A DNA stretch of 64,000 bases. Source: an uncultured bacterium (GTDB taxonomy: Bacteria > Verrucomicrobiota > Verrucomicrobiia > Verrucomicrobiales > Akkermansiaceae). The stretch spans positions 1,871 to 65,870 of the forward strand of contig CAMEZO010000002.1 in NCBI GenBank assembly GCA_945947905.1, written 5' to 3'. The translations under genes were made by a program, and so were the position numbers. This document shows, piece by piece, positions 3,241-27,800 of this stretch. How positions within the stretch are numbered: the first letter of the stretch is position 1; every line of letters starts with the position of its first letter. The notes below the pieces were generated by a model that saw nothing but the letters and a program-made list of their open reading frames with translations, was not told the DNA's origin and ran no database searches.

Positions 3241-3244
3241 AGCT

Positions 3245-7627: not shown

Positions 7628-7636
7628 GAAAAATAC

Positions 7637-7672
7637 ATTTCGCCTCGCGGTTTTCAGGCTGCGAGGCGAAAT
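7637..7672 (+). terminator. Stem-loop after tRNA-Gly(CCC)
   Basis: 12-bp perfect inverted repeat ATTTCGCCTCGC / GCGAGGCGAAAT. Confidence 0.65.
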
Positions 7673-7841
7673 CTGTTTCAGTACATGTTGCGATAGGGGT
7701 CGCTCTACCACTTTAACACTGTCGTGAGAAGATATTCCGAGCTTTGCATGAGTTCGCCCGAGATCCGTTCGAATCTGTGTTGATCCGTGGACGAATTCCG
7801 GAATCCCGTTGCATTAAATCAGACCGGGAAGTTCGGGGAGC

Positions 7842-10269: not shown

Positions 10270-10356
10270 GGTAAAAATAAACAGAGATTCGGTAAGCGTA
10301 TGGTAGCAGATGCGCGCCGGAAATGCAACCGAAAAGCGCACGCGGGACGGAAAAAA

Positions 10357-11412: not shown

Positions 11413-11505
11413 GATGATGCGTTAAGATGTGGGGGTGCCGACACCCCTCTGCGGAGTATACTACAGCGGCGGGCGGATTGCAATACCTAACTTCCTCCCC
11501 GGGGA

Positions 11506-12375: not shown

Positions 12376-12394
12376 GGTTGTGTCAAAAATCGTG

Positions 12395-13021
12395 TTACAT
12401 GTCCGAGATGGTGTCCGGTATGTCCTGTATGTACTTGGGCGGCTCCGTGTTGGCGGGGGGAATGGGTGCGGGGGAGGTGCTCTCGCCTTCCTCCGGTTTG
12501 TCTTTCAGTCCGAAGGGATTGCTCACCGGGCCGCTGTTACTGGGGGGAAGGAAGGACGGCGTGTCGGTGGGGGCGTCCGGCAGCAGGGAGGCGATGACCT
12601 CCGGCTTGGCCGGGGCCGTCTGCTCTTCGGGTACCTGCTGGTCCTTGGCCTCCGGCTGCGCAATCTCGCGATACCGGTAGACGCGGTCGCCTCCCACCAC
12701 GGTGCCGCTGCGGACGGTGGCTGCCACGATGCCGCTGCGGGCGTTACGAGAGGCGTTCACCGACAGGTTGCCGATGCGTTCCGTGGAGCCGTTGGCAGGG
12801 TGGGTGATGAGGGTTTCGCCTTCCTCCGGCACCGGGCCGATGATGCGCAGCAGCGCCAAGCCCTTGTCCGGGTACACCTGAAAGACGGAGCCCAGGTACT
12901 GCGGCGGCGGGGTCTTCTTGGTCGCGTTCGCTTTCGTGTCTGTGGGTTTCTGCTGCTGTTGGCAGGCCGTCGACAGCAAAAGCAGCAGGGCTGCGGTCGG
13001 CAGGAGGAGGCACTTCATCAT
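12395..13021 (-). CDS. Hypothetical lipoprotein
   Basis: Lipobox LLLLSTAC, Pro-rich tail. Promoter TTGACT-17-TAGGAT lies 7 nt before ATG 13021. Confidence 0.7.
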   Translation of the reverse strand: MMKCLLLPTAALLLLLSTACQQQQKPTDTKANATKKTPPPQYLGSVFQVYPDKGLALLRIIGPVPEEGETLITHPANGSTERIGNLSVNASRNARSGIVAATVRSGTVVGGDRVYRYREIAQPEAKDQQVPEEQTAPAKPEVIASLLPDAPTDTPSFLPPSNSGPVSNPFGLKDKPEEGESTSPAPIPPANTEPPKYIQDIPDTISDM

Positions 13022-13134
13022 AACCGCCATCCTACACCATTTCCCCGCGTGAGTCAAGGCCACTCTGCGGCACCGCCGCCACGCCGCATGCGTTTTTTCT
13101 TGACATACGCCCTTCCCCGCGTCACAATATCCCC

Positions 13135-13353
13135 ATGCACACCATGCCGGCCGTCTTCACCTCCCCTTGGCAGTGGACCATCCTCCTGCTCGCCTGCCTT
13201 CTTGTCTTCGGCGCCAAACGCCTCCCGGAGATCGCGCGCGCCCTCGGCAGAAGCCTCGCCGAATTCCGTAAGGCTCGCCGCGACTTCGAGGATGAACTCA
13301 CCCGCACCGAGCACCGTGAGGACGATCGGGAGGAAAAGGACGACCGCAGGTGA
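13135..13353 (+). CDS. tatA: Twin-arginine translocase TatA/TatE subunit
   Basis: WQWTILLLACLLVFGAKRLPEIARALGRSLAEFRKA. Promoter TTGACA-17-CACAAT lies 6 nt before the ATG. Confidence 0.93.
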   Translation: MHTMPAVFTSPWQWTILLLACLLVFGAKRLPEIARALGRSLAEFRKARRDFEDELTRTEHREDDREEKDDRR

Positions 13354-13390
13354 GCATGCTCGCCTGCGCCCTATCGGTGACGATGCCGTA

Positions 13391-13821
13391 GAACTACCGA
13401 GCGGATGATGAGAACTACCGGACCCCTCTCCCGGACCGAATAAGAACTACGGAACAGGCCGTTTCAACTACCGAACGGGCTCCGGGAACTACCTTTTCTA
13501 CTACAGCACTTGTTGACAACGGGAGGAGAAAAACCATATGGTACAAACGCTTTGTTGTTTTGAGTTTTCTAACATCCATGCTTTAGTCTCCGATTTTTCC
13601 CCCATGCACACACGCGCGCGTAGCGTATTTTTCAGCCGCAGTGCATGGTCCCCGGTCAATGCCTATATCCCGAAAACCCTTGATATTATTATGAATTCTC
13701 CTTATTATAATAAAATTTTTATATAAAAAAGGTAGTTGAAAAGGGGTGGGTAGTAGTTCAAAAAGGGGTTCCGGTAGTTGTAACGGGGCTTTCAGTAGTT
13801 CAAACGGATCTTTCGGTAGCC
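13391..13821. repeat. Inverted sets of 21-bp-phased iteron-like repeats flanking an AT-rich core (replication-origin-like)
   Basis: AACTAC at 13392, 13413, 13445, 13466, 13487. Its reverse complement GTAGTT at 13732, 13753, 13774, 13795, plus GTAGCC at 13816. AT-rich tract ~13681-13730. Confidence 0.8.
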
Positions 13822-13957
13822 CCTTTTCTTTCGCCGCTGCCAAGACCCGACCGCCCCGGGAAATGAGCTGCACCGGACCTCCCGCCGCCGCGGCTGTCGT
13901 CAGCGAGTAGGGATGAACGCGGAATTTCGGGAATCATCGGAAAGGGCTGATTGTCGC

Positions 13958-15373
13958 CTATTCTCGCCGGATGACGGCGCGGCCGGAGTCGGTGTAGTTG
14001 ACGGACTTGACCTTCTCGAGGTAGCGGAAGATCGCATCGGAGGCGCGGAGGCCGAGGCGGCGGGCGGAGGAGACGGGTAGGCCGGGGGTGACGGCGGCGG
14101 CGTAGTCGTTGGTGACGACGCGGTAGGTTTTGTTCGGGTCGAGGGGCTTACCGTTTTCGGCCCGGATATCGGTGACGGTGAGGTTGAAGGAGGAGTCCAG
14201 GACCCCGGTGTAGGTGATACCCGCTACGCAGGGGGAGCCGTGCCCGTCCGCCTTGGTGAGGGACGTGAGCATCTGCACGAGCTCGGCGGGGCGGAGGCGC
14301 AGCTCGATCAGCTCGTTACCGTAGACATCGAGGCGGTGCACATCTGCTACCGTGATGGGCCCCGCGGGCAGCATGCCGATGCGGATGTTCCCGTAATTCT
14401 GCACGACGATATCAGCCCCGGTCGCATAGCGGATAGCATCCGTCTCCAAGCAGCCGAGCGCCTCCCTGTGAACCATGGGCAGCTCGTTGTGACCGACCAC
14501 GCGCTGCAAAGCCGGTGTCGCGGTGTATTCTGCCACCCGTGCGCAGAGATCGGCATCCGGCGGGTAAAGATCCATGCTGACGGTTTCCGCCTGCTTCGAG
14601 ACCACCTTACCATCTTTCACCTCCAGGGTTATACGCGTGGCATGGGAGGCCCGACCGGCCGTTTGGGTGATGAGCACACCGCCCTCCGAGGTGATGCGGT
14701 TGACAGGCGTGTAACTCCCGCCGCCGACGATGACATCCGCCTCCGGCAAGAGCGCCGCGAGCTTGCGGTCATTGTCAAAACCCAGGTGGGTGAGCAGCAC
14801 GAGCACATCGCACTCGCTGCGGAGCCGGCGGTACTCCGCGGCCACCTGCAACGCGTGCTGAAACACGAGCCCCGGCAGGGAAGCCGAGCGCCCGGCCGGG
14901 AAGCCGCCGCTGCCCACGCAGGTGAGACCCAGCACGCCGATGCGCACCCCCTTGCGCGTGAAAATACGGTAGGGATGCAGGGTCAGCACGCGCTTGGTAT
15001 CCGGTTGCACATTGGCACAGATGAAGGGGAAATGCGCCGCGCGCACATTATCCCGCAGCGCCGGCAGCCCGCCGTCGGCATCGTGCAATCCCAGCCCGCA
15101 GGCATCGAAGCCCAGGCGGTTCATCAGGTCAATGACAGGGCGCCCCGGATGCTTGACGGCATCGCATGCCGGGTGCCCGGTTCGGGTGTCGCCGGCGCAC
15201 AGCAACAACGCGCCGGGGTCGGCGGCCTTGGTTTCCTGCACAAAACTCTGCAAGCGCGGCATCATGTCCAGTGCGGCGTGAATATCATTTGTCCCGATAA
15301 TAGTGATGGTTTCCGCAGGGCAGAAACCCGTGAAGAAGAGCCAAATGGCGGCAAATGCGGCGCGTGCGTTCAT
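13958..15373 (-). CDS. 5'-nucleotidase/UshA-like metallophosphoesterase with degenerate metal site
   Basis: TNDIH, AGD, FICANV, LLTHLG and a C-terminal 5'-nucleotidase domain (YRVVTNDY). GNHE is replaced by GLHD and GGHSH by GGGSY. Confidence 0.8.
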   Translation of the reverse strand: MNARAAFAAIWLFFTGFCPAETITIIGTNDIHAALDMMPRLQSFVQETKAADPGALLLCAGDTRTGHPACDAVKHPGRPVIDLMNRLGFDACGLGLHDADGGLPALRDNVRAAHFPFICANVQPDTKRVLTLHPYRIFTRKGVRIGVLGLTCVGSGGFPAGRSASLPGLVFQHALQVAAEYRRLRSECDVLVLLTHLGFDNDRKLAALLPEADVIVGGGSYTPVNRITSEGGVLITQTAGRASHATRITLEVKDGKVVSKQAETVSMDLYPPDADLCARVAEYTATPALQRVVGHNELPMVHREALGCLETDAIRYATGADIVVQNYGNIRIGMLPAGPITVADVHRLDVYGNELIELRLRPAELVQMLTSLTKADGHGSPCVAGITYTGVLDSSFNLTVTDIRAENGKPLDPNKTYRVVTNDYAAAVTPGLPVSSARRLGLRASDAIFRYLEKVKSVNYTDSGRAVIRRE

Positions 15374-15533
15374 CGTGCGGTCAGTTTAGCATGATTCGGT
15401 AGACGAGCGCAAGCAAAAACGCCCGCCGAGGGAGCAAAAAAACCGAAACTGCGGTCAAAAAAAGCCCCCCTCTGCGTGTCCGCGGTTTTGCAACCTATTG
15501 ACCCGGATACGGGAAAATCGGATGATGAAAGGC

Positions 15534-16763
15534 ATGGCAATACTGATAAACGAATGGGGAACGACGCCCATGCCGCCCGCCGCGCCGCATCTGATGCTGC
15601 AAGGCGTAGCCGGTGTTGACGCCGCCGCCCGCACGCTGGGCAAGGGCCTGACGGATGCCGCCGACGCCGCGGCAGAGTTGGCCGACGAACAGGAACAGGT
15701 AACAGGCACGGGAGAGCTCGCCGGCTTCGCCGCCCGCCTGCACCGCATAGGGCAGGAAACGCGCGAGGAGATGGCCGCCCGCCGCATACGCGACTGGGAT
15801 GCCGCCTGGCAGCAGACCAGCGAGCCCCTGCTGCTGGAGGCCGTCAACGAGCTGCCCGAAAACGTCCGCGACGCCGGCCGCGAGCTGGCCCGCGCCTACA
15901 ATGCGCAGGAGGCCGTGCGCGCCCGCCGGGAATACGAGCTGGGCCGCATCGAAACCGCGCGCATGAGCTGGCAGAACTGCTTGGACAACGCCGTGCAGAG
16001 CGGCGACAGCACCGCCCTGGACGCCTGGCTGCAGGCCGGCCGCGGTGTGTTTGTGGCAGAGGACAGGGTGGAACCCATGCGCCGCGAGCTGCGCAGCCGC
16101 AGTTGCCTGGCACAGTGGCAGCAGCGCCTGCAGCAGGAGCCCCTGGACGCCCTGACCGCCCTGTCCGGGGACGATGCGCGCCCCGAGTGTGCACGGGATG
16201 TCCGCGCCCTGGAGCAAGCCGTCGCCACCGCGCGCCGCAGCGCCTCCGGCTCCCTGGCCCGCCGCTGGCAGCAAGCCCTGGAGCAAGGCCTGGAACCCGA
16301 TGCCGACAGCGTCGCCCGCGCCCGCGCCGCCGGCCTGGTGCCCGCCGCGCCCGAGACCGCCCCGCAGCCCATGACCCCCCGCGAGAAAAGCGAGTGGCTG
16401 GGCCGCATTGATGAGCGAGACGCCGCCGACGAACAGACCCTGCGCCTGCAGATAGCCCTGGCCCCCCTGCCGGTGCAGGAGCGCAGCAGCCTCTTGCAGC
16501 GCATGGACGCCACCTGCGCCATCCCCGCCGATGACCGCCGCCGCGTGAGCCTCGCCCTCCGCCGCCTGTACCGCCGCGGGGTGCTCGGATGCCCCGGGGA
16601 TGCCGCCGCTCACCGCCGCCTGGGCCGTCTGCAGGAGGAGGCACTGCCCATCCTGCAACAGGGCGGGGCCGCCGCCGCAGAGCGCTGGGTCAGCAGACTG
16701 CCCTCCTACAGCGGGCGCTGGGTATGCTACGGCGATATGCAGCAGAAAGGAGTGCAGCGATGA
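15534..16763 (+). CDS. Phage-derived hypothetical protein (internal virion/ejection-protein-like)
   Basis: Ala-rich helical 409-aa ORF; first gene of a coupled operon ending in a terminase. Function inferred from context only. Confidence 0.55.
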   Translation: MAILINEWGTTPMPPAAPHLMLQGVAGVDAAARTLGKGLTDAADAAAELADEQEQVTGTGELAGFAARLHRIGQETREEMAARRIRDWDAAWQQTSEPLLLEAVNELPENVRDAGRELARAYNAQEAVRARREYELGRIETARMSWQNCLDNAVQSGDSTALDAWLQAGRGVFVAEDRVEPMRRELRSRSCLAQWQQRLQQEPLDALTALSGDDARPECARDVRALEQAVATARRSASGSLARRWQQALEQGLEPDADSVARARAAGLVPAAPETAPQPMTPREKSEWLGRIDERDAADEQTLRLQIALAPLPVQERSSLLQRMDATCAIPADDRRRVSLALRRLYRRGVLGCPGDAAAHRRLGRLQEEALPILQQGGAAAAERWVSRLPSYSGRWVCYGDMQQKGVQR

Positions 16764-19700
16764 CGGAGGAGCAGCCCCTTGCCGAGGCCCCGACGGCGGA
16801 GGAGGATCTCTACAGCCGCCCCCGGTCCCATACCCCCGCCGCCGACCCGCAGGCGGCCGAGGCCGATATGCCCGCCACGACGGAGGAGGAGAAGGAGCGC
16901 TACTGGCAGCGCGTGCTGACCGGTAACCCCGAAACCGTGCCCGCCGATGTCATTCGGCAGGCCTGCGCCGATGACCCCGCCGTCCCGGAGGAAGAGAATA
17001 CCTATGACCTCCTCACCGGCATCAACCGCTCCTGGTATGCCGACCACCACCCCGAAGAGAGCCGGGAGGAGCTGCTCCTGCGCTGGGCGGATGTGCGCCG
17101 CTCCCTGGCCGAGGAGCTGAACGTGGCCAACGACGAGCGCGAGGTCTTCACCGCCCTGGCCGACGAAAAGCCGATGGAGGAGCGCCGCCGTCTGGCCCGC
17201 GAGACCTACGGCCGCGCCTACCTGGCCGCTCTGCACGGCGAGGCCCGTCCCGAGCCGTCCCCCGGGGTCAGCCCCGAGGACCGGGAGCACCTGCAGAACA
17301 TCTGCCGCCGCGCCGAGCAGGATGCCGAGGAAAAGATGGCCCGCGTGCGCCCGCTGGTGGATGTGGTGGCCGACGGTATGGACGCCTTCATCGCCACGGA
17401 GCAGGAGGTGGCCCCCCCGCTGAGCCTGCGCGTCTACGGCGACAAGATGCGCCTGATGGAGGCCTGCTACCGCCTGGCCGAGATGCCGCAGGAGGACCGC
17501 GAGCTGCTGTACTATATGGCAGCGGACAAACTGCGGAAGCGCGTGAAGCCCGACTCCGCCGAGCCGGAGGGCTTCCTCTCCGCCGCCGCGCGCGCCTACA
17601 GACGCGGGTTTACGGACATCGGCACGGGGCTGGCGCAGGGCCTGGGGCACATCGGTGTGGCTACGGGGCGCAGGCTGGGCCATTTCCTGGACCTGCCCTC
17701 GGTGAACGCCGCGGCGGATACGGCGGAGGGCGGACTGCGCGTGTTGGATGAGATACGCGAGGCCGCCCAGCAGGATGTGCTGCCGCTGGACCTAGGCGAG
17801 GGGGCCGGCCTGGCAGAGCAGTACTTTGTGGAGGCCATGGGCAATGTGCCCGCCGCCGCTCTGGCCCTGTGCGGGGGCGTGGGCTTCGGGGTGCTGGGGC
17901 TCAGCGGCATGGGGCAGAGCGTGTCCGAGGCCCGCCGCCGCGCGCCGGAGAACAGCCAGGAGCTGCAACTGGCGGCCGGTGCGGTGGGCGGGTGTGTGCA
18001 GGCCGGTATCTGCGCCCTCATGGGCCGGGTGGGCGGCAAGCTGCTGGAGCAGAACCTCACCGCCTTTGCCCGCGCCCACGGACGGGGCATCGGGGCGTAT
18101 TCCCTGGCGGCCCTGCGCACCTCCGGCGGGGTCGCGGCAGAGGGCGGCAAGATGCTTGCAGCCGTCCGCTTGGGGCAGGCGGCGGAGCAGGGGGCGCAGG
18201 AGCTGGCCGCGCAGGCGGAGCAGCGGGCCTCAAATATCAACTGGCAGGAGTTCGGGGACAACCTCACGGACATCGAGGCCAACATGCGGGAGGCCGCCGT
18301 GAACCTGCCCTTCGTGCTCATGGGGGCCGGCAAGGCCTCGCTGCATCACTTCCGCTGCCGCCGCCAGCTTCTGGACCCGCAGGGCGGCGCCGGGGAATGG
18401 GGGCTGAAGCCGGAGGAGCTCGCCCGCATCGCCGCCGAGCCGGATGCCCTGCGCAGCAGCGAGATGATGCGCGAGGCCATCCGCAGGACCCCGCGTTGGA
18501 ACTCCGCGCAGAAGCTGCTGCCGCTGGCACGCCGCGCGCTCAACCTGCTCAATACGCAGCAATTTCGCCCCGCTTACAGCACGGGCGAGCTCTGCGATTT
18601 CTTGGGGATGCCCGCCTCCTTCGGGGAAGGGGTGAACCCCGCCGCCCCGGCGCCGGCGCGCCGCAGTCTGTCCGCCCGCTTGGCGCAGAATGATGAATGG
18701 ACCGCCCTCGCCCGGCCCGGGGAGGCCCTGCACCTTCCCGCCCAACTGCCGCCGCCGGAGAAGCCCCGTGCGTGCGAGGCTGCCGTGAAGCTGGCCGCGG
18801 AGGACCTGCAGATGCTCGCTTACCGCCGTATCCTGGGCGCCCAGGCGGACGGGGAGCTGGCCGCGGGAGAGGCCGCCGCCGGGAAGTCCGAGCTGATGCG
18901 GCGCGAGCTGCCGGATGCCGTGAGCCGCGCGCTGGTGCGCTGTGCGCAGGGGGAGCTGCCCGCCTATGCCCTGCGGGATCTGGAGGGCGAGCTGCTGGGG
19001 GAGCCTTCCGGCTTGCATCCCACCGCCCGCCGCTACCTGCTCCGGCGCATGGCGGCCTACTCGGACTTTGCGGCCACGGGGGCGGAGCCGCAGATGGCCA
19101 AGCAACTGGCCGTGCTGGGCGCGCGCCGCTGGGCGGAGTCGCTCTACTACCTGCTGCCGCGTTGCCCGGCGTTTCAGGAGCTGCTGGTCAGCGGTCGCTC
19201 GCCCGCGCAGGCTTTCGCGGAGCTCTCGCAGCGTTACCTCGGCAGTGCTGCCTGCGAGGTGCCGCCGCCGGCGGAGTCGAATGCCGCCGTCTTTGCGCGC
19301 TATGCCGCGCTGACCGGTAACAAGGTGGAGAGTGCCACGGGGCCGGACGGCGTGACGCGCCTGCGCGCTCGGCGTCCGGATGGTCGCTACACGCCCTGGC
19401 ACAGCACGCAGGAGCAGGTGATGAACGATGTCGCGGGCCACGCAGCGCTGATGTTCGGCGGTTATATGAGCACCGGGGGCATGGCGAACATGCGGCCCCG
19501 CGTCTTCTCCCGCTTCGATCAGCTGGGGGCGCTGGCGGTGCACGACCTGTACGGGGCGTGGTTCGGCAGCGCCACGGGGTGGGTGCCGGGCTTGCAGATC
19601 GAGCGGCTCCGGCACTCCATGCGCGGTGCCTGGCGCGGGGATGGCATCACGCCCGTCCTGCTGAAGGAGGCGCGCGGACCGCAGCAGTACACGGCGGAGC

Positions 19701-21652
19701 TCTATTCCGTCGTCAATCCCGTCTCGATGCTGCAGGCGCGCCTGGCTGCTTACTGGCGCGGGCAGATAGAGGGCGGCCACACCACCGCGGAGCAGGTCAT
19801 GGACTTCCTCGCGGCGCACGACCGCCTCACCCCGGAGGAGCGCGCGTCCACGGAGGCTATCGCGGCCCTCCGTTTCCGGCGCGAGCCGGGGGGACCGCGC
19901 ATCATGCTCCCGCGCGATTTCCCCGGTATGTACAACGAGGTCGCGGGGCGCATGGCGGAGTATATGACGGAGTACCTGGTGCAGAACCCGGACGCCGTGC
20001 CCCTGCCGGGGTCCGTGCGCCGTTGGCTGGATTACGCTCCCTTCATGCCCCCGGAGAAGCCCGCCGGGGTGACGGCCGATCACAGGAGCCGCGAGGTGGG
20101 GGAGAAGATGGAGCTGCTGGGCGTAGACTCCAACCGCCTGGCGGCCCGGAAGGTGCAGGGCTGGGCAGGGCGCGCGGAGGCTCTGCGCCGCGAGGTATCG
20201 GCGGAGGATGCGGCCTTCTTCCGGCAGCATCTGCAGGGGGCGTTCACGCTGCCGCCGGCGCAGCAGCTGGAGCAGGGCTGGGCTTACCGCTTGGGCGGGG
20301 AGCAGGCTGCCATGGCGACGGGCAGTACCCTGCGGCGCTTGCTGACGGACCCGGGGCGGGAGCTGCCCCGCCTCTCGGCGGAGGATTCGGAGCACCTCCT
20401 CCCCATGGCGGAGTCCGTGGTGCGGGCTTTCCCGACGCTCGCCGCAGAGGGCTCCGCACCGCAGGGGGCCGTGGGGCAGGCGCTGGGCAATCTGGCGGCG
20501 GTGCTGGCCGAGCACCCGGAGCTGCATGAGTACGCGCCGGCGCAGGAGCACTTCCGCGTGCACCGTATGCAGGTGCGGGATCTGCCGCCGGCGCAGGACC
20601 CCGGTACCTTCGCTACCTGGGCTACCCGGCCCGCAGGGATGAAGCCCGGTTATGCGCTGGAGGAGAACATTCCCATGCCGGAGTGGATGCGGCAGGACCC
20701 GCGGGCCATCCCGGCGCTTCATACCATGCACGCCCTGCGGATGATGACGGCGGACGGGCCGGTCTATACGCCCATGGGTATCCTGACGCCGCAGGGCTTT
20801 GTGGGCGGGCGCTACGGGCAGAATCCCGCCCCGCTTCGGGGCTGGCGCTCGCGCCCCGCGCTGGAGAATATCCTGCGCATCCTGGATGAGGCGTACGCCA
20901 CCGGCGGCGGGGAGCCCGTGCCCGTCTGCGGAGTGCGGCTGCGGGGGCTTAACCTCGCGGAGCTGGACCTGCGGCCTCTGCGGGACATCACGGTCTACAG
21001 CAGCCCGGAGACTTCGGGCGGTTGCTACCGCTTGATGCCGGGGAACCCGGAGATGCCGTCGCTGAAGGTCGCGGAGCCTTACCTCGTCAAGAGTTTCGAC
21101 GGTATCCTGTGCCGGGGTATCGGCGGCATCCCGGCCAAGGAGCTGCGCGAGTCGGCCCCGGCGCCGGAGTCGTACGCCGTGCCGCTGCGCGGGTTTGTGC
21201 GCACGCGTTTTCAGCCCTGCTCGGAGTACATGGCCTACGAGAATACCCTGGCGGCTACCACCCGCGCGGTGGATGAGATGCTGGCCCTGGGGGAGCGCTG
21301 TTACTTGGCCCCGCCGGATGCCTACCTGCGCTTCGCCTTGCAGGAGGGCATCTGCCGCCTGTGCGAGGATACGGGCTTCTCGTACTTCCTGGAGGGGCAG
21401 GGGGTGCAGGAGCTCTCGCCCGGGCAGGCGCGCGCCGTGGCCTGGGTGCGTACCATGGTGGCGGCTCTCGGCGACCCGTCGGAGGAGTCGTTCAATGCCT
21501 TCGCGCAGGCTTGCCGCAGCATCAGTGCCGATGAGGCGCTGCGGAAGCAGATGGTGGAGGTGTTCAACTGTGAGCGCGACCCCGCAGACCCGCCGCCTCC
21601 GCGTAAGCGTACCCGTAAGAAGAACCCGGATAACATTAACATGCTCTGGTGA
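16760..21652 (+). CDS. Large (1630 aa) phage-derived protein, ejection/DNA-transfer-protein-like
   Basis: ATG 16760 overlaps the upstream stop (ATGA), RBS GAAAGGAG. Central Gly/Ala-rich hydrophobic helices (AALALCGGVGFGVLGLSGMG). No catalytic motif recognised. Confidence 0.6.
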   Translation: MTEEQPLAEAPTAEEDLYSRPRSHTPAADPQAAEADMPATTEEEKERYWQRVLTGNPETVPADVIRQACADDPAVPEEENTYDLLTGINRSWYADHHPEESREELLLRWADVRRSLAEELNVANDEREVFTALADEKPMEERRRLARETYGRAYLAALHGEARPEPSPGVSPEDREHLQNICRRAEQDAEEKMARVRPLVDVVADGMDAFIATEQEVAPPLSLRVYGDKMRLMEACYRLAEMPQEDRELLYYMAADKLRKRVKPDSAEPEGFLSAAARAYRRGFTDIGTGLAQGLGHIGVATGRRLGHFLDLPSVNAAADTAEGGLRVLDEIREAAQQDVLPLDLGEGAGLAEQYFVEAMGNVPAAALALCGGVGFGVLGLSGMGQSVSEARRRAPENSQELQLAAGAVGGCVQAGICALMGRVGGKLLEQNLTAFARAHGRGIGAYSLAALRTSGGVAAEGGKMLAAVRLGQAAEQGAQELAAQAEQRASNINWQEFGDNLTDIEANMREAAVNLPFVLMGAGKASLHHFRCRRQLLDPQGGAGEWGLKPEELARIAAEPDALRSSEMMREAIRRTPRWNSAQKLLPLARRALNLLNTQQFRPAYSTGELCDFLGMPASFGEGVNPAAPAPARRSLSARLAQNDEWTALARPGEALHLPAQLPPPEKPRACEAAVKLAAEDLQMLAYRRILGAQADGELAAGEAAAGKSELMRRELPDAVSRALVRCAQGELPAYALRDLEGELLGEPSGLHPTARRYLLRRMAAYSDFAATGAEPQMAKQLAVLGARRWAESLYYLLPRCPAFQELLVSGRSPAQAFAELSQRYLGSAACEVPPPAESNAAVFARYAALTGNKVESATGPDGVTRLRARRPDGRYTPWHSTQEQVMNDVAGHAALMFGGYMSTGGMANMRPRVFSRFDQLGALAVHDLYGAWFGSATGWVPGLQIERLRHSMRGAWRGDGITPVLLKEARGPQQYTAELYSVVNPVSMLQARLAAYWRGQIEGGHTTAEQVMDFLAAHDRLTPEERASTEAIAALRFRREPGGPRIMLPRDFPGMYNEVAGRMAEYMTEYLVQNPDAVPLPGSVRRWLDYAPFMPPEKPAGVTADHRSREVGEKMELLGVDSNRLAARKVQGWAGRAEALRREVSAEDAAFFRQHLQGAFTLPPAQQLEQGWAYRLGGEQAAMATGSTLRRLLTDPGRELPRLSAEDSEHLLPMAESVVRAFPTLAAEGSAPQGAVGQALGNLAAVLAEHPELHEYAPAQEHFRVHRMQVRDLPPAQDPGTFATWATRPAGMKPGYALEENIPMPEWMRQDPRAIPALHTMHALRMMTADGPVYTPMGILTPQGFVGGRYGQNPAPLRGWRSRPALENILRILDEAYATGGGEPVPVCGVRLRGLNLAELDLRPLRDITVYSSPETSGGCYRLMPGNPEMPSLKVAEPYLVKSFDGILCRGIGGIPAKELRESAPAPESYAVPLRGFVRTRFQPCSEYMAYENTLAATTRAVDEMLALGERCYLAPPDAYLRFALQEGICRLCEDTGFSYFLEGQGVQELSPGQARAVAWVRTMVAALGDPSEESFNAFAQACRSISADEALRKQMVEVFNCERDPADPPPPRKRTRKKNPDNINMLW

Positions 21653-23247
21653 TGGATAAGCGGGCTCCCATTCGCCGCAGGCTGAACTCGCCCCTGTGGC
21701 GGCTCAATCACCTGTATTGGATCGAGAATAAGCAGGGGCAGGTGCAGCGTTTCACCATGAATGCCGCGCAGCTCCGCCTGCATCGCAACCTCTGGTCTCG
21801 CAATGCCGTGCTCAAGGCGCGTCAGTTGGGTATCTCCACCTATGTGGCGCTCTTCATGTTGGATTCCTGCCTCTTCACCCCGGGCTTTCACGCCGGTATC
21901 GTGGATAAAACGCTGCCGGATGCCGAGTTGAAGCTGGAGAAGATCCGCTTTGCCTGGGAGCACCTGGACTACCTGCCGCCGGGGGCGGGGGCGCAGGAGC
22001 GTTCGCTGGCCTACCTGGGCAGGGTGGTGAAGCGGGGCACCGGCCTGCTGCGCAGCGGGGCGGAGGTGCTGCCGGCGGATGCCCGCGAGCGTCTGGCGTT
22101 CTCCAACGGCAGCGATGTGCGCCTGGGTACCACCATGCGCGGCGGTACGCTCAACCTGCTGCATGTCTCGGAGCTGGCCCACACCTCCGTGCACGCCCCG
22201 TGGCGTGCGCGCGAGGTGCTGACGGGCGCGGTGAACAGCGTGCCGCTCTCCGGGCGCGTGATCCTGGAGAGTACGCACGAGGGCGGGCGCTACGGGGTGA
22301 ACTATGAGCTGATGCTGCAGGCGATGGAGAACCGCGCCCACCGGGTGCTCTCGCCGCTGGATTTCCGCTTCTTTTTCTTCGGGTGGTTTGATAACCCGGA
22401 GTACGCTCTGCCCGGGGCGCTGCCGGCGGGGGATGCGCTGCATGCGTACTTCGCCGGGCTGGCGGAGCAGGGGATCTGTCTGTCGCAGGCGCAGCAGGTG
22501 TGGTATGCCCGTATGGCGCGCACTATGGGGGGCGCTATGCGGCAGGAGTACCCTTCCTCGCCGGAGGAGGCGTTCAGCGTCGGTAATGAGGGTGCCATCT
22601 ACGCCGCGCAGCTCATGCGCCTGCGGGAGTCCGGGCGCATCGGGGCGGATTTCGCGGTGCATCCCTTCGCGCCGCTCTACACGGCCTGGGACCTGGGGAT
22701 GAGCGACCACACGGCTATCTGGCTCGTGCAGGCCATCGGGGGGCAGGTCTACTGGCTGCACCACTACGCGGCCAATCAGCTGCCCGTGGAGCACTATGCC
22801 GCCAAGATCCGCGAGTGGGAGCAGTCCTACGGCCGCTGCGAGGCGCACTTCCTGCCGCATGATGCCGCCCACCGCGACCCGCACGGGCAGTCCTATGTGG
22901 AGTGCCTGGCGCGGCTCGGGATCACAGCGGTGCGGGTGGTGCCGCGTACCACGGATGTGTGGCGCGGTATCAATGACCTGCGCCGCCTGCTGGTGAACAG
23001 CTGGTTCCACCGGAACACGTTGGAGGAGCGCTCCGACCCGGCCGGCCGCCGCGTGCCTTCCGGGCTCGCCTGCCTGGAGAATTACCGCACCGCGCCCCCC
23101 TCGCCCTCCGGTTCCTTCCGCGAGGCTCCCCTGCACAATGAGTTCTCCCACAGCGCCGACGCCGCCCGCACCTTCGCCGAGGCCGCCTCCCACGGCCTCC
23201 TCACCCCTCTCTCCTCCCGCCGCCCCTCCCTCGCTCGCATGCAGTGA
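21652..23247 (+). CDS. terL: Phage terminase large subunit
   Basis: RLNHLYWI N-terminus, Walker A LKARQLGIST, Walker B LHVSE, LESTHEG coupling motif, QEYP, nuclease AWDLGMSDHTAIW and HSADAAR. TGATG overlap with the upstream gene. Confidence 0.92.
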   Translation: MDKRAPIRRRLNSPLWRLNHLYWIENKQGQVQRFTMNAAQLRLHRNLWSRNAVLKARQLGISTYVALFMLDSCLFTPGFHAGIVDKTLPDAELKLEKIRFAWEHLDYLPPGAGAQERSLAYLGRVVKRGTGLLRSGAEVLPADARERLAFSNGSDVRLGTTMRGGTLNLLHVSELAHTSVHAPWRAREVLTGAVNSVPLSGRVILESTHEGGRYGVNYELMLQAMENRAHRVLSPLDFRFFFFGWFDNPEYALPGALPAGDALHAYFAGLAEQGICLSQAQQVWYARMARTMGGAMRQEYPSSPEEAFSVGNEGAIYAAQLMRLRESGRIGADFAVHPFAPLYTAWDLGMSDHTAIWLVQAIGGQVYWLHHYAANQLPVEHYAAKIREWEQSYGRCEAHFLPHDAAHRDPHGQSYVECLARLGITAVRVVPRTTDVWRGINDLRRLLVNSWFHRNTLEERSDPAGRRVPSGLACLENYRTAPPSPSGSFREAPLHNEFSHSADAARTFAEAASHGLLTPLSSRRPSLARMQ

Positions 23248-23286
23248 GGGCAGGGGCGCGAGGGCTTAACAGAGAGCGAAAAAAAA

Positions 23287-23669
23287 GCTGACCGCGGAAG
23301 GGAAGGTGCATCAGCAGAGCCGCGCGAGGGCGTATGAGAGACTTCACACCGCCGTGCTGATAGGAACCGAGAAGTTGCTGACCGCGAAAAAACAGACTTC
23401 ACGCCGCTGGGGTGGGAGAGAGCGAGAAGATGCTGACCGCGGAATAAAAGGAATTCTTGGAGAGTCGGTGGCCTGCATAGCTCGGTTCAGACTTCACGCC
23501 GCCGGGGTGGTAGGTCCCTTAGTTATTTTAATAAATAAATGATGCTGCCTACTATGACTTTGCTCTGAAGTCTTGCTGAAGTCCCGAAGGCCAATCAGTC
23601 TCCGAAAATTCCTTTTATTCCGCGGTCCTTTTCCACTCGCCCACGACAGATACAGCGGGATGAAGTCTC
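23287..23669. repeat. Composite palindromic repeat, copy 1 (left arm around the GxxExxY gene)
   Basis: Motif A CAGACTTCAYRCCGC at 23338, 23393, 23488 and inverted at 23655. Motif B GACCGCGGAATAAAAGGAATT at 23432 and inverted at ~23600-23627. Inverted core at 23508-23600. Confidence 0.9.
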
Positions 23670-23695
23670 CCATTCCCTCTGCCCGGCTCCGCTTA

Positions 23696-24127
23696 TTAAG
23701 GATGGGGGATTTGCTCACCGGCCGATTTTGCTGCACCTTTGGTACATACAACACGACGCCATTCGCAACCCCCTTGTTTGCCGAAATTGAACAGAAGCCC
23801 GACCTGTAAGTGACTTGCTTTAAGGTAGTTGTAAACCTGGTTCTTGTGGGCGTCAACGAGTTCAGAGACAGCCTTCAATTCAACAATGATCTTGTCGAAG
23901 CACACGAAATCCGCCTTGAATAAAGGCTCCAGAATGCTATCCTTGTAATGGATTTTCAACAAGGCCTCCCGCTGAAAGGGGATTCCCCTTGCCTTGAATT
24001 CACTGGCAAGCGCATGCTGGTACACAACCTCCGAAAAGCCATGTCCCAAGACTTCATATACCTCAAGAGCAGCCCCTATAATGGCACCGGTCATGCTTGA
24101 ATCAATGATTTTTGAGTACTTCGACAT
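23696..24127 (-). CDS. GxxExxY family protein (PD-(D/E)XK nuclease superfamily)
   Basis: GHGFSEVVYQHAL signature, ADFVCFDKIIVELKA (D...ExK), QVYNYLKA and GLLFNFG. Visibly AT-richer than the host genes. Confidence 0.92.
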   Translation of the reverse strand: MSKYSKIIDSSMTGAIIGAALEVYEVLGHGFSEVVYQHALASEFKARGIPFQREALLKIHYKDSILEPLFKADFVCFDKIIVELKAVSELVDAHKNQVYNYLKASHLQVGLLFNFGKQGGCEWRRVVCTKGAAKSAGEQIPHP

Positions 24128-24242
24128 GCCTCTATCTCATACTACAGTTCATTCCTCAAGTCAAGACCAAACCACCTTATTTCCCCTTTTTTTATCACTT
24201 ACCTACCATGCAGCCCCCTCTCCGCCCGTCTCCTCCAATACG

Positions 24243-24761
24243 GCGGCATGAAGTCTGTACTGAGCTATGCAGGCCACCGACTCTCCAAAAATTCCCTTTA
24301 TTCCGCGGTCATCCTCTTCTCGCTCTCTATTGTCACAGCGGCATGAAGTCTGCACCAAGCTATGCACGGTTCCGATTTTTTCCAAGCTCCCCCTTCATCC
24401 CGCTGTAGCTGTCGTGGGCGAGTGGAAAAGGACCGCGGAATGAAAGGAATTCTCGGAAACTGTCTATCATGCTATTCACAGTCAAGACGTCGGAGCATAT
24501 TCATTGTAGGTAGCTTCGGATTTTAATTAAAACAACTCAGGGACCTACCATCCCTGCGGCATGAAGTCTGCACCGAGCTATGCAGGCCATCGACTCTCCA
24601 AAAATTCCTTTTATTCCGCGGTCATCCTCTTCTCGCTCTCTATTGCCACAGCGGCATGAAGTCTGCAAGGAGCCAAGCATGTCAATCAGTTTCCGTATCC
24701 TTCCTGAAATTCTGCGTTCTGAAAACTTCAGCTCTCTCCCACCCCGGCGGTATGCAGTCTG
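24243..24761. repeat. Composite palindromic repeat, copy 2, plus an inner 95-bp tandem
   Basis: Inverted motif A at 24243, 24338, 24556, 24651, 24747 (95-96-bp steps within each run). Core at 24460-24550. 24393-24665 is the reverse complement of 23393-23665. Confidence 0.9.
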
Positions 24762-24789
24762 TTTTTTTCGGACGTTTTCAGAAATACGC

Positions 24790-24818: not shown

Positions 24819-24848
24819 TTCCACGGCCCATTGTGGCCTGATGTCGTC

Positions 24849-27800
24849 ATGAAACTCCGTCTTCCTCTCCTCCTCCGCTTGGCTTTGTTGTCTACTGCTG
24901 CCGCCTACACGCTCGGCAGCGGCTGCCTCTTCGCTGATGATGCGCCCGCCGATGCCGCGCAGGACGACCCCATCGCCGAGGCCGTGGACGAGGAAGAAAG
25001 CGACAGCCCCGCCATCGGCTTCGAGGGCTATACCGAGTCTCAGTTGGTGGATATTCAGTCATCCGACTCCGCAGGCTCCGTCATCCGGCAGATGCTGGAG
25101 AACTCCACCACGGGCGCGGTTGCCAACGTGGGAACCACCTCCTCCACCTCCAACGGCGCCACCACCGCCGCCGAATCCCCCGCGCTCACCCTCACGGCCC
25201 CCGCCGAGCCCGTGACCGACACCTCCCTGACCACCTCCACCCTTTCCGATTCCGCCGGCGAGGGGGCTGTCGCCCCCTTCTTCAGCGCTGAAGAAGCCGC
25301 CGCTCTCGTTGTCGCAAGCCCTGCAACGAGTACACCCTCCCTTAAAAACACCTCAACAGCCACCCTCTCCTCGTCCGACGCATCGGACGAAACTACCTCT
25401 TCCGTGGCTGCTAACGGTGCCTCCTCCTCCATCGCCTCCGTAGGCTCTGCCGGCGGCGCCGGCGCCTCTTCCGGTGGTGGTTCTGCTTCCTACTCCATCA
25501 CCTCCTCGGCCCCCGATAGCTCTTCCTCCCTCGTCATCACCACCCCCACCGACGACACCTCCTCCGACCCCATCGCCGACGACACCTCCTCCGACCCCAT
25601 CGCCGAGGATGTCCTCGAAGACTCCACCACCGAGGACACCACCACCACTTCCACCCTCTCGGATTCTTCTGCCTCCACCCTTGCCGGCACATCCTCTACC
25701 TCCGCCACCATCCGCACCCTCCCGGCGTTGAAACTGCTGGGCGCGACGGAGACATCGACTCAGGGAACAGTTAAGGTTGATGGCGTTGATAGACCATCCG
25801 GTGAAAAATCCGATAAAGGTGTGCAGTTTTTGTATGGCAAGATGGGTGGTAGCGGAGATGATGTCAATATCATTTATTTACATAATGACCCGTCAACCTA
25901 TCCCAGCGTTGTCGAAGTAGACGCTAATTCGTTTTATATTTGCCCGAATAACAAAAGTCCCAAGTTCAGTATAGGGGCTCTCAAAACTGATACCCCTGCG
26001 GCTACTGTTAAAATCCAAAATAACGAGTGGAGCGGGAATGAAAATTCTACGCTGACCCTCACTCTGGATACTCTTTCCGTCAACGGCTCGGCTTCATTGG
26101 AAGTCAACCAGACTCGCACCGGCGCAATTACCGTTTCCATAGGTAAGGTGGCGAATAGCTCAACGGAGTCCACAACGGGTCCTCTTCTCACCAGCGTCAA
26201 AAACTCCGGAACGCTTAATCTGGGTACAAACGCCTCCGGAGAAGGGGAGTCAAAAGTTACAGCGTCGTCCATTTCCATTGGCTCTCTGACGAACAGCGGC
26301 ACGATGACTCTGAATGGAGAGACGACCATTACGGAGAAGCTGACAAACACCGGTACGTTGACGGTAAATAGTGGCGCGACTCTTGTCGGAAAGATTGATT
26401 CAACAGGGACACTGAAGTTGGATGGTGTATGGGATCTTCGCGGTCAAGATAATATGATTAAAGATGGTACCGACCGTCTCGAGACACAGCTTAGAAAGAT
26501 CAATGCGGGTTCCGGAACTGTTAAGGTTAAGGCTGACGGTGCGTATGTTTTCATGCAAGATTATGCCTTGGGTGGACTGTCGCTGGAATTTAGCGGTACC
26601 AGTACCAGTGTCGCTGAGATTAACGGCTATGGATATAAAGACGGTAGTTCCGAGGTCACTGTTGGTGTCGGTTCCCAAGTTAAGACAGGAGGGAATCTGC
26701 GCATTGAATCCAAAGCTACCCTCCTTGTATCCGGAGGAACTGTAAATTGCGGCGGAACCTTGCAGTTAGGGCACGAAGAGACTGGTACAAATGGCAAAAA
26801 TTACGGTCGTTTGACTGTTGCGGAGGGTGGTCACTTGACTGCGGCGAGTATAGGGCAAACGGGAAATCAATATTCCGTGGTCAAGGATGGGAATTTGTTT
26901 ACCATGACAGGAGGAAAATTGACTATTACCTCTGCGATAAATGATGCAATATCGAAGGTTTATACTGTGATTTCCGGGGGTACACTCGATACGTCGCAGG
27001 CCGCTTGGGGAATTAAAGGTAATGGTGACGGGAGTGTGAGTGTGGGCGGTGTAACTGTTTCCGATGCCTATACGACAGAGGAGGGGACGACAGCCTACAG
27101 CCGCAACGCCCTGACATTGACCGGAGCGAACATTACCGGCAACATCAGCTTGGCAGGGAAGGCTGACTTGAACCTGAAGAACGTGACGGTCACCGGGGAG
27201 GATGTCACAGTGGGGGGCGATAACCGAACGATCAGTGTGGCCGAGGGCAGTCTGACTGTTGAGAAGTCTGTTACGACAAAGGGGCTTTTGCAGGTTCAGG
27301 AGAATGCAACCCTGAAACTCAACAACGCGGATACGACGGTGACCACCATCACGAACCGGGACGGTTCTACGGAATCTGCCGCGATTACCGGTGGTAGTGT
27401 GTCGATGACATATGATACTGCTGATAATAAGGGCGTCATCTCCGGGGCGACAATCAGCAATGCTGCAATTGATGTGTCACAGCGGAGTGTGTTGGCGCTT
27501 TCGAACTCTACGCTCGATAGCGGAGTAATTACCCTGAACAGCAATGCTGTGCTCGAGTTGGCCGCTTCAGTCAACGGGACTCTTACCGGTAGTATCGTGT
27601 CTGCTGAAAATGCTACGGAAACGACGCTTCGGGTGAGTGGCTCCGCCGTTGAGACCTTGATCGGGACGGTGAATGTGGCTGCAACGGAGGTTCAATCCGG
27701 TACATTAACCCTGAGCGGCGATAGCATTGCGCACAGCCTGGGGGCTGTGACGGTGGGGAGCAACGCTGCACTGAACGTTGAAGGAAGTTCGCAGACCCTG

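Follow-up and report, generated by a model that had tools for sequence, protein, structure and literature searches.

A terminase operon maintained across Akkermansia, a candidate part of a scattered, podovirus-like particle system

The gene transfer agent of Rhodobacter capsulatus (RcGTA) is siphovirus-like, with its TerL, portal and capsid genes together in one ~15 kb cluster. PBSX of Bacillus subtilis, a defective prophage that forms particles, is encoded by one contiguous myovirus-like cluster and is strain- or species-restricted. T7-like and HTVC-type podoviruses carry large helical internal virion proteins within the structural module, and the genes of the HTVC-type phages form one uninterrupted block of about 20 kb. 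For the polyvalent proteins, packaging into phage heads followed by injection has been predicted (Iyer et al. 2017, PMC5512222).

Here we analysed a three-gene operon, A-B-TerL, in a 64-kb stretch of Akkermansiaceae DNA (the window). As in the multi-locus gene transfer agents (GTAs; RcGTA and its relatives), phage-derived head and packaging genes are fixed in the host lineage, are passed on vertically under purifying selection, have a host-like composition and occupy more than one chromosomal site without an integrase or replication module. In contrast to RcGTA, the Akkermansia lineage appears podovirus-like (T7-type portal, tubular proteins), TerL lies apart from portal and capsid, no portal was found in the clade of the window, and A and B show hypervariability. 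With the Pelagibacter phage HTVC100P (MW273924), the lineage shares homologous capsid-assembly protein, MCP, tubular A and tubular B, a portal of the T7-type head-tail connector family (PF12236 in the chromosomal cassettes described below, an annotated connector in HTVC100P), and the gene order portal, small gene, scaffold. The large helical proteins A and B also recall those of the podovirus structural module, although they have no detectable similarity to phage internal virion proteins, and the Akkermansia genes are scattered among host genes instead of being contiguous. Like PBSX, the set is chromosomal and phage-derived and may package host DNA without the ability to propagate, whereas its genes are dispersed and genus-wide.

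The three same-strand ORFs described in a first-pass annotation of this DNA were borne out by ORF and sequence reading, as was their coupling through an ATGA overlap (16760–16763) at the A/B junction and a TGATG overlap (21650–21654) at the B/TerL junction (Table 1). The promoter proposed in the same annotation fared less well: it is the sole sigma-70-like match in 15200–24000, where shuffled sequence yields 0.8 ± 0.8, and its −10 hexamer overlaps alternative in-frame ATGs of A at 15522 and 15525. An upstream start at one of these would be consistent with the longer N-termini of some of the 12 A homologues aligned. Nor did the module prove to be just as GC-rich as the housekeeping genes, its GC content of 0.705 lying 7–8 points above the 0.62–0.64 of the window's housekeeping stretches.

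Table 1. Features of the A-B-TerL operon (positions in the window)
Feature	Positions	Strand	Basis
Promoter-like TTGACC-17-GATGAT	15498..15526	+	Proposed by the first-pass annotation; unsupported
Gene A, 409 aa; start possibly ATG 15522 or 15525	15534..16763	+	ORF; alignment of 12 homologues
RBS for B, AAAGGAG	16746..16752	+	7 nt 5′ of ATG in ATGA overlap; read directly
Gene B, 1630 aa, giant, Ala/Leu/Arg/Gly-rich, mainly helical	16760..21652	+	ORF
B residues 42-725, homologous to giant polyvalent N-termini	16883..18934	+	hhalign A2 vs A6
B, two Gly-rich hydrophobic segments, aa 356-385 and 402-422	17825..18025	+	Kyte-Doolittle scan
Gene C, large terminase TerL, 531 aa (532 from GTG 21649)	21652..23247	+	ORF, PHROG, motifs; overlaps B stop
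TerL ATPase half: KARQLGIST, LLHVSE, EST	21670..22284	+	phrog_26724 E 5e-40, residues 8-212
TerL RNase H-like nuclease half: WDLGMSDHT, LPHD, SHSADA	22288..23187	+	phrog_2472 E 2e-36, residues 214-513

No tRNA or tRNA target, att-like repeat, terminal repeat, integrase or replication gene was found at the operon borders, and the contiguous structural and lysis genes which, with an integrase and att repeats, define an integrated prophage were likewise not seen at the locus. Candidate att-like repeats at the borders were rejected as chance-level matches, all of them inside coding sequence. We compared the window with the ORFs of loci L081–L164, whose neighbouring genes include portals and capsids (two phage records, L081–L082; two Akkermansia contigs, L083–L084; 80 IMG/VR viral contigs, L085–L164). 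Matches were confined to the TerL region, in line with the earlier claim that no further structural gene, integrase or att site is visible in the 64 kb. Two matches just 5′ of TerL originated from the Akkermansia contig L084.

The operon is inherited vertically in about 80 species and embedded in housekeeping DNA. We found A-B-TerL intact in about 80 species-level Akkermansia/Akkermansiaceae genomes, including nearly every Akkermansia species examined, and the triad is intact at about 77 of 80 loci, the exceptions being cut contigs and one split B. The module is single-copy and, in the window as elsewhere, on contigs of up to about 300 kb, is flanked by ordinary metabolic and housekeeping genes (5′-nucleotidase, DHODH, SulP, rpsO-pnp, grpE-dnaJ, hisD, ABC-F). 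Its chromosomal position varies between clades and is stable inside each clade, the NJ tree of TerL agrees with the grouping by flank synteny, and module GC tracks flank GC (r = 0.70, range 0.42–0.71). In close pairs, dN/dS was 0.03–0.12 for TerL, 0.10–0.21 for A and 0.10–0.26 for B; between the window and L002, A and B gave 0.16 and 0.31, the latter being the overall maximum. Furthermore, pig-gut metatranscriptome contigs cover all three genes at a depth similar to that of the neighbouring genes. Synteny, inheritance and dN/dS, which the first-pass annotation had proposed for examination, thus sustain its picture of a maintained, ameliorated phage module, and the lineage-wide vertical inheritance, purifying selection and host-like composition looked for in a GTA are all present. 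Neither of the outcomes named as contradicting that picture was seen: the cluster is not strain-specific with neutral dN/dS, and the flanking housekeeping genes are not those of a normal prophage whose remainder had been separated.

Divergence is far quicker in A and B than in TerL, even at synonymous sites. The elevated divergence is confined exactly to these two genes, identity jumping back to 98% at the B/TerL junction, and A-B blocks appear to have been swapped between lineages.

TerL is, to judge from its motifs, a catalytically intact phage large terminase under strong purifying selection. It matched phrog_2 at E 2.6e-20 and annotated phage terminases at 36% identity (tblastn, E 1e-69), with at most 37% identity to cultured phages and 47–48% to three uncultured viral contigs. 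The score against Pfam Terminase_6C, 19.2 bits, lies under the gathering cut-off of 22.6, and is outweighed by the PHROG matches (E 1e-20 to 1e-40) together with the tblastn match. Both the ATPase motifs and the acidic residues of the RNase H-like nuclease expected of a phage TerL are present. Indeed, as previously claimed, KARQLGIST (Walker A-like), HVSE (Walker B), EST (coupling) and the nuclease motifs WDLGxSDxT, PHD and SHSADA are invariant in the Akkermansia and phage TerLs; the invariant alignment columns include K55, A56, R57, Q58, G60, T63, H171, S173, E174, E206, S207 and T208 in the ATPase half, and D347, G349, D352, P402, H403, D404 and D503 in the nuclease half. The Walker A stretch aligns weakly (E 0.5) with SRQLGKTT of T4 gp17, the Lys of GKT being replaced by Ile in TerL and by Phe in both annotated phage TerLs aligned (Cimandef, PS-1).

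Sequence and profile searches of Pfam, PHROG, NCBIfam, PADLOC and PDB returned no match for A and no family match for B. An alignment of 12 homologues of A shows Trp residues that never vary, together with the motifs RIDER and GCPGD, and the AlphaFold2 model of A (pLDDT 81) is all-helical. The fold of A had no match in PDB, and a model of B aa 431–1630 (pLDDT 77) none of significance in PDB or BFVD, so that the structure and profile searches recommended at first pass gave no fold assignment for either protein. The top BFVD matches of the B model (E 0.25–2) were phage proteins described as 'large polyvalent protein associated', which we regard as a lead only.

B retains its start M1 across 18 homologues and measures 1650–2195 aa in other species. 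Its N-terminal region aligned with giant verrucomicrobial proteins at an hhalign probability of 99.9% (E 1e-33, 788 columns), and an HMM search recovered ~35 such proteins of 2–3.7 k aa, the homology covering their N-terminal ~700 aa. Of the three giants scanned, two have polyvalent-protein domains that pass the Pfam cut-off (LPD37 in P0272, ART-PolyVal in P0273), while PRTase matches in P0273 and P0274 were below it. B is thus homologous to bona fide polyvalent proteins and, like them, is tied to the terminase-portal class of phages and evolves rapidly (PMC5512222), but the two or more effector or enzymatic domains of such proteins were not found in B by Pfam, PHROG, NCBIfam or fold searches, and its C-terminal ~900 residues are lineage-specific. 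A in turn gave a weak profile match (53%, E 1.4e-4) to a 700–800 aa protein encoded 5′ of the giant polyvalent genes. Unlike the module, the giants sit in small integrase-plus-helicase elements, adjoining integrase, primosomal and DnaB genes instead of a terminase, and no TerL was found within 10 kb of such genes in Luteolibacter and Verrucomicrobiaceae. The best-conserved part of B is its pair of Gly-rich hydrophobic segments, with invariant GGxGFG and AGxxGGxxQxxI columns, which probably form a membrane hairpin.

B had been likened at first pass to the ejection proteins of podoviruses, a guess with which the podovirus-like lineage and the polyvalent homology of B agree. A likeness of A and B to known internal virion proteins, however, did not materialize: the A and B profiles gave hhalign probabilities below 1% against the internal-virion block gp44–gp47 of HTVC100P (gp46 annotated hypothetical), and nothing resembling T7 gp14-16-like internal virion or ejection proteins emerged from PHROG, BFVD or PDB. 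Since internal virion families are notoriously divergent, A and B could still be their functional analogues. No relatives of A and B were found in IMG/VR. The large protein encoded directly 5′ of TerL in L085 and L087 was considered as a B homologue and rejected, being a phrog_376 tail protein dissimilar to B.

Other phage-type structural genes lie at separate loci, as the idea of genes dispersed over several sites had anticipated. A locus comprising tubular A, portal, a 93-aa gene and a scaffold-like gene occurs in 11 Akkermansia genomes, and four of these, all MAGs, have a TerL locus of this family as well, a link resting on MAG binning; A and B lie 5′ of TerL in three of the four, while the contig of the remaining one stops about 1 kb 5′ of TerL. 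No portal, scaffold or tubular A locus was found in the window's large clade by a search that reached 33%-identity portals in other phyla. In a search for the portal of the window's species, the contigs of four runs were compared with L188, and a single 524-bp contig matched, in one run. A lone MCP gene (32% identity to a phage MCP, E 8e-48) is present on the A-B-TerL contig of three species of the window's larger clade (L011, L015, L038), and in some species lies 7–8 kb from TerL. Two species share its protein at 100% identity, with differences of 5–8% between them in the genes beside it. It is again lone in L207 and L213, the two of 15 metagenome loci with a full 10 kb on both sides, and no other phage-derived gene was found around MCP on any of the 15. 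In three runs, the depth of an MCP-bearing contig matches that of the window contig (24.2/24.9, 21.8/22.8 and 19.8/23.7). The search for portal, capsid and small terminase genes advised by the first-pass annotation succeeded for the first two in related genomes, but gave no portal in the window's clade and no small terminase. No tubular B, fibre or lysis gene could be tied to the Akkermansia set either, and MCP/TerL and portal/TerL pairs were seen, never capsid, portal and terminase in any one genome.

Sister chromosomal cassettes, whose TerL is 52–56% identical, encode tubular B, tubular A, a T7-type portal (PF12236) and TerL, and the same TerL lineage also occurs on a genuine phage contig and in a prophage that looks intact (L173, L199). 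By this company, the TerL lineage is podovirus-like, one that goes with tail tubular proteins and portals of the T7 type. A search for hosts of the L085-type phage TerL found no close match among the genome representatives.

The retention of the operon among ordinary genes, together with lone capsid and portal genes elsewhere, argues for a piece of a scattered, domesticated particle system and not for a dying prophage. The best explanation, which we hold with about even confidence, is that the operon is the packaging and probable ejection module of an ancient domesticated podovirus-like element, GTA-like, whose other structural genes lie at separate sites. The scattered genes would still cooperate to assemble phage-like heads, which TerL would fill with DNA via the portal; A and B would be packed in the head and, on delivery, form or accompany a trans-envelope channel, the Gly-rich hairpin of B inserting into the membrane. 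The whole would amount to a gene-transfer-agent-like particle system, in which conflict with recipient-cell barriers may be what makes A and B turn over so fast and in cassette fashion. Against it stand the missing portal in searches of the window's clade, the lack of viral homology or fold matches for A and B, the integrase-plus-helicase elements without terminase that house the giant B relatives, and the hypervariability of A and B, which is unusual for GTA genes.

The same hypervariability could be read otherwise. A divergence confined to two genes is an arms-race signature typical of defence and counter-defence specificity genes, and a co-opted terminase with a non-particle role, in which TerL would be an ATPase-nuclease effector and A and B membrane-anchored specificity or sensor parts, is an explanation that we consider unlikely. 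Such a system might, for example, protect against phages by cutting or mis-packaging the DNA of sister-lineage podoviruses, or by hijacking their procapsids; genuine phages and a prophage related to the module exist for the same host group (L085–L087, L173, L199), and the portal locus is undetected in most species retaining A-B-TerL. However, none of A, B and C matched a PADLOC-DB 2.0 defence family at E ≤ 0.1, conserved lone capsid and portal genes are ill-suited to a pure defence role, and the relatives of B serve mobile elements in offence rather than hosts as sensors (PMC5512222).

Those mobile relatives, in small integrase-bearing elements, also bring to mind a minimal mobile element or phage satellite, in which A-B-TerL would move, borrow helper capsids and redirect packaging through TerL. 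The variation of genomic position by clade and the apparent exchange of A-B blocks across lineages fit this reading, which we consider highly improbable, as the borders lack an integrase, replication gene, terminal repeats and tRNA target, the module is single-copy and absent from IMG/VR, its position is clade-stable with a TerL tree that follows the clades, and its GC is ameliorated to each host. A functionless, decaying prophage remnant, or a normal prophage split by rearrangement or assembly, would explain why just three phage-derived genes occur in the window and why Terminase_6C falls under its threshold; it is scarcely tenable given frames that are unbroken, save for one split B, across about 80 species, dN/dS far from neutral (0.03–0.26 in close pairs, at most 0.31), invariant catalytic motifs, coverage by metatranscriptome contigs, and the same arrangement beside housekeeping genes on contigs of up to about 300 kb.

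Returning to the domesticated particle system, its GTA reading receives circumstantial support from purified mouse-gut particles, in which, of the contigs showing a transduction pattern, those from Verrucomicrobia were over-represented 3.5-fold (PMC7667829, a paper that also discusses PBSX). In its boldest form, which we advance tentatively and think somewhat doubtful, Akkermansia, including the human-gut species, would carry the first podovirus-type multi-locus GTA, or a broader DNA and protein delivery particle, in Verrucomicrobia: TerL would pack host DNA into heads built from the lone capsid protein, and a hypervariable, polyvalent-like giant and its partner would be injected into recipients. 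In the literature searched on Akkermansia with terminase, GTA or capsid, we found no description of the module.

Akkermansia ranks among the foremost commensals of the gut and has been put forward as a live biotherapeutic. If the interpretation is true, the operon would give the genus a means of exchanging genes, or of interfering with phages, that had gone unrecognised, with consequences for strain stability and safety assessment, and would carry domesticated-virus biology into a new phylum and a podovirus architecture. The pairing of a frozen TerL and capsid with a fast, cassette-like A-B pair offers a tractable case for the evolution of injected proteins under conflict.

Judged from its sequence matches, gene C is a real large terminase (TerL). 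It matched PHROG families (phrog_2, E = 2.6e-20; N-terminal half, E = 5e-40; C-terminal half, E = 2e-36), and the Pfam Terminase_6C match fell slightly under the cut-off. A tblastn search against phage genomes returned 619 records, the top ones at 36-37% identity (E = 1e-69), many of which are annotated as terminase large subunits (Ralstonia Cimandef/GP4 group, Pseudomonas PS-1, Stx2 phages and pelagiphages). Both phage records examined, Cimandef and PS-1, have structural genes 3' of TerL, among them a major capsid gene and, in Cimandef, an annotated portal. The Walker A/B, coupling and nuclease motifs, described as retained in the first-pass annotation, indeed each prove invariant when the Akkermansia family is compared with the phage enzymes (KARQxG(I/F)(S/T)T, hhHVSE, EST, WDxGxxDxT, PHD and SHxADA). 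Among PDB sequences, only T4 gp17 matched, weakly and over the Walker A stretch. Insertions of the TerL family are shared by the closest viral contigs (L085-L088, 39-48% identity), and L085, in which a scan detected a capsid and a tail gene, is a genuine phage contig.

The operon is wholly occupied by the three ORFs, which lie on the same strand. Both overlaps by which they had been proposed to be coupled were read in the sequence: ATGA at the A/B junction, with AAAGGAG 5' of it, and TGATG at the B/C junction. The candidate promoter upstream of A fared less well; it is the sole sigma-70-like site within 15200-24000, as compared with 0.8 +/- 0.8 sites in shuffled sequence, and its -10 hexamer overlaps in-frame ATG codons at 15522 and 15525, which would lengthen A N-terminally, in line with the longer N-termini of some homologues. 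Nor does the module equal the housekeeping genes in GC, as had been read, since it is richer (0.705) than the housekeeping stretches of the window (0.62-0.64). The operon lies among ordinary genes, those for 5'-nucleotidase, FAA hydrolase, dihydroorotate dehydrogenase and a SulP transporter, and a search of the borders for tRNA, integrase and flanking repeats found none. When ORFs from portal/capsid-containing neighbourhoods of two phage records, two Akkermansia contigs and 80 IMG/VR viral contigs (L081-L164) were compared with the window, matches were confined to the TerL region, two just upstream of TerL deriving from the Akkermansia contig L084.

Coordinates of the features in the window and on related contigs
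Sequence	Feature	Coordinates	Strand	Description
Window	Operon	15534-23247	+	A, B and C
Window	Gene A	15534-16763	+	409 aa ORF
Window	Gene B	16760-21652	+	1630 aa ORF
Window	Gene C (TerL)	ATG 21652 to 23247	+	531 aa; 532 aa if GTG 21649
Window	Repeat copies	23280-24770; 29947-30240		~60-180 nt, direct and inverted
Window	Nuclease gene	23696-24127	-	143 aa
Window	Large-protein gene	24831-29900	+	1689 aa
Window	tRNA-Gly pair	7359-7430; 7556-7628	-; +	TCC; CCC
L165	Giant element	7539-17398		upstream replication-initiation or helicase-loader genes
L166	Giant element	2966-12042		upstream replication-initiation or helicase-loader genes
L168	Giant element	2785-16729		upstream integrase, primosomal protein, DnaB helicase
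L174	Sister cassette	1567-11653
L175	Sister cassette	1252-11689
L176	Sister cassette	2338-11653
L199	Prophage	8121-21454		podovirus type

Elsewhere in the window, dense copies of a repeat (motifs CAGACTTCACGCCGC..GGGGTGG and GCTGACCGCGGAAtaAAAGGAATT; 10 motif matches against 0.06 expected) flank two AT-richer accessory genes on either side. The repeat looks like a MITE/REP-like dispersed element, and its copy number varies, since one metatranscriptome contig omits 23263-23394. The low-GC nuclease gene (PD-(D/E)XK, PDDEXK_3, GxxExxY type, E = 4e-39) is enclosed by inverted repeats of 183 nt with 85% complementarity, with which it may form a small mobile cassette. The 1689-aa protein is Ser/Thr/Gly-rich, is encoded at lower GC (~0.53), and has a signal peptide-like start and a PEP-CTERM-like C-terminal anchor (PEPTTSTLGLLALAALCARRRR). 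Pfam gave no match for it, and the 97%-related MAG L001 only a partial one of 41%, so it appears to be a variable surface protein. The divergent tRNA-Gly genes, ~125 nt apart, are unrelated to the operon.

When one genome per GTDB species was scanned, 91 TerL relatives were obtained, the best 80 of which (57-97% identity) belong to Akkermansia, Akkermansiaceae or Verrucomicrobiales MAGs, one being labelled merely 'uncultured bacterium'. Wherever the contig extends far enough, A, B and TerL lie intact next to each other, A coding for ~400-450 aa and B for 1650-2195 aa; the only interrupted copy among ~77 is L072 (CAYJJA010000024.1), in which B is broken into ORFs of 361 and 1372 aa, either as a pseudogene or by an assembly error. 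A, B and C alone are common to every locus, and the flanks, made up of metabolic genes (histidine phosphatase, GlcNAc 2-epimerase, DHDPS-family lyase, ABC-F, histidinol dehydrogenase, rpsO-pnp and grpE-dnaJ), are stable inside a clade and different between clades. The groups defined by these flanks were recovered in a neighbour-joining tree of TerL, and the GC of the module tracks that of the host (0.42-0.71, r = 0.70). Furthermore, in close species pairs, the dN/dS of TerL was 0.03-0.12, as low as that of the housekeeping genes beside it, with A at 0.10-0.21 and B at 0.10-0.26; between the window and the related locus L002, it was 0.16 for TerL and 0.31 for B. Pig-gut metatranscriptome contigs span A, B and C at about the depth of their neighbours, with DNA carry-over possible, and the 90%-identity cluster of TerL contains 1473 sequences, including a RefSeq protein from the cultured species A. 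massiliensis. With clade-stable flanks, a congruent TerL tree and close-pair dN/dS of 0.03-0.26, the synteny, inheritance and selection analysis proposed in the first-pass annotation shows a genus-wide and vertically inherited triad. The opposite outcome named there, a strain-specific, decaying prophage under neutral dN/dS, is excluded by the spread of the 80 best relatives across the genus, dN/dS of at most 0.31, and the synteny, tree, GC, metatranscriptome and cluster data, taken together.

Neither A nor B matched curated families or solved structures. The confident, all-helical model of A (pLDDT 81) gave no match in a fold search, and that of B aa 431-1630 (pLDDT 77), which combines helices with small beta domains, had no significant match in PDB or BFVD. 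Two hydrophobic segments rich in glycine (aa 356-385 and 402-422) lie in the most conserved region of B. When 1.8 billion representative proteins were searched with a profile of B aa 280-640, 119 were retrieved, comprising the Akkermansia type and ~35 giants of 2000-3700 aa (E = 1e-18 to 1e-4), and profile-profile comparison aligned B aa 42-725 to giant aa 144-855 (probability 99.9%, E = 1e-33). Two of the three giants scanned have polyvalent-protein domains above the Pfam cut-off (LPD37 in P0272 and ART-PolyVal in P0273), and phosphoribosyltransferase matches under the cut-off were also found in two of the three. Iyer et al. (PMC5512222) portray polyvalent proteins as weapons that terminase-portal phages and conjugative elements probably package and inject, and mention verrucomicrobial (pro)phage examples. 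The giants sit in small integrated elements of Luteolibacter, Verrucomicrobiaceae and Akkermansiaceae MAGs; in L165, L166 and L168, a 700-800 aa protein with weak similarity to A (hhalign 53%, E = 1.4e-4) is followed by a polyvalent-type giant of 2300-2500 aa. No terminase was found near the giants in elements of this type, and no transfer or capsid genes within 10 kb of them.

Turnover is far faster in A and B than in TerL. Inside one clade, A and B are ~57% identical, as against ~90% for TerL and the flanking proteins. In the close pairs L005/L012, L039/L040, L041/L042 and L017/L018, dS is 3-10 times as high in A and B as in the neighbouring TerL and flanks (in L005/L012, B has 1.56, TerL 0.17 and the flanks 0.03-0.45), while dN/dS is still 0.1-0.2. 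Sliding identity delimits the divergent block to A and B, with break points at the gene borders and 98% identity regained at the B/TerL junction, which points to cassette-like exchange of alleles, or to long persistence of old balanced alleles. The pattern is as expected of proteins in conflict.

TerL homologues of 52-56% identity were found in ~10 kb chromosomal cassettes with host genes on both sides (L174-L176), and the same cassette occurs in L178 (Verrucomicrobiales), whose contig stops before TerL. Tail tubular B (E = 1e-38 to pelagiphage tubular B) comes first, followed by tubular A (E = 1e-20), small genes and, in some cassettes, an M15 peptidase; next are a T7-type portal (PF12236), two further small genes and TerL. 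The capsid gene is missing, and OTCase and SodA flank one side in two of the cassettes. This conserved sister-lineage arrangement may be independent, or an intermediate stage of the same domestication. Further TerL homologues occur on a phage-like contig that also carries a portal (PF12236), a scaffold-like gene and other genes (L173, 49%), and in A-B-TerL form adjoining grpE-dnaJ (L177, 56%). A portal-profile scan of the genome collection detected a second locus in 11 Akkermansia/Akkermansiaceae genomes. One strand of it encodes tubular A; the opposite strand has small genes, a portal (54-63% identity), a 93-aa gene and a ~293-aa capsid-assembly-like gene. TerL is absent from this locus. Four of these MAGs (JAVXPO01, JAUNER01, CAYQNL01 and DKPP01/UBA7331) also hold a TerL locus of this family on a separate contig, with A and B upstream in three; in JAVXPO01, the contig stops ~1 kb upstream of TerL, and neither A nor B was detected on that stretch. 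The same scan reached 33%-identity portals in other phyla, and gave no match from the large clade that includes the window. An Akkermansia MAG with a domesticated portal locus (L179) also carries an intact-looking podovirus-type prophage (L199, CAYVAI010000007.1), encoding TerL, portal, M15 peptidase, scaffold, capsid and tubular B. Its products are 25-49% identical to the chromosomal or sister-cassette counterparts (TerL 49% and major capsid protein 37% to those of Akkermansia; portal 36%), and it belongs to the same lineage.

Local tblastn with phage capsid queries detected a 302-aa capsid gene, which in L015 and L011 lies 7-8 kb downstream of TerL and in L038 sits at the end of the contig. 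Its product shares 32% identity with the L085 capsid (E = 8e-48) and 34% with that of the Pelagibacter phage HTVC100P, and its neighbours had no similarity to the phage-derived proteins tested. In two species whose adjacent genes differ by 5-8%, the capsid protein is 100% identical, and the gene has two nucleotide changes, both at third positions. Fifteen metagenome contigs carry the gene (67-100% identity), and portal, scaffold, tubular gene, TerL, A and B were absent from them, the full 10 kb on both sides being present only in L207 and L213. In three runs with the window's species, a contig with a diverged copy of the gene matched the window contig in depth (24.2/24.9, 21.8/22.8 and 19.8/23.7), so the window's organism probably carries the capsid gene elsewhere in its genome. 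A like search for its portal matched a single 524-bp contig, in one of four runs. The proposed search of the rest of the genome for portal and capsid found, in related genomes, a separate portal locus (11 genomes) and a lone capsid gene.

The simplest account of the operon is a domesticated, scattered podovirus-like element. An ancient element of this kind would have been domesticated in Akkermansiaceae and its genes dispersed by rearrangement, A-B-TerL representing the packaging enzyme with two proteins of the packaged-and-ejected kind. From the joint conservation of TerL, capsid and portal, we infer that the scattered parts may still build DNA-filled particles like those of gene-transfer agents (GTAs), which fits the 3.5-fold over-representation of Verrucomicrobia contigs among transduction-pattern contigs in purified mouse-gut particles (PMC7667829). 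The main rival would give the operon a co-opted, particle-independent role, such as packaging interference or defence against related phages; it would suit the hypervariability of A-B and the portal missing from most species, but leaves the frozen lone capsid gene unexplained. The literature searched contained no description of the A-B-TerL module. The module is best filed with domesticated, GTA-like phage remnants, in this case of podovirus origin, multi-locus and in a new phylum.
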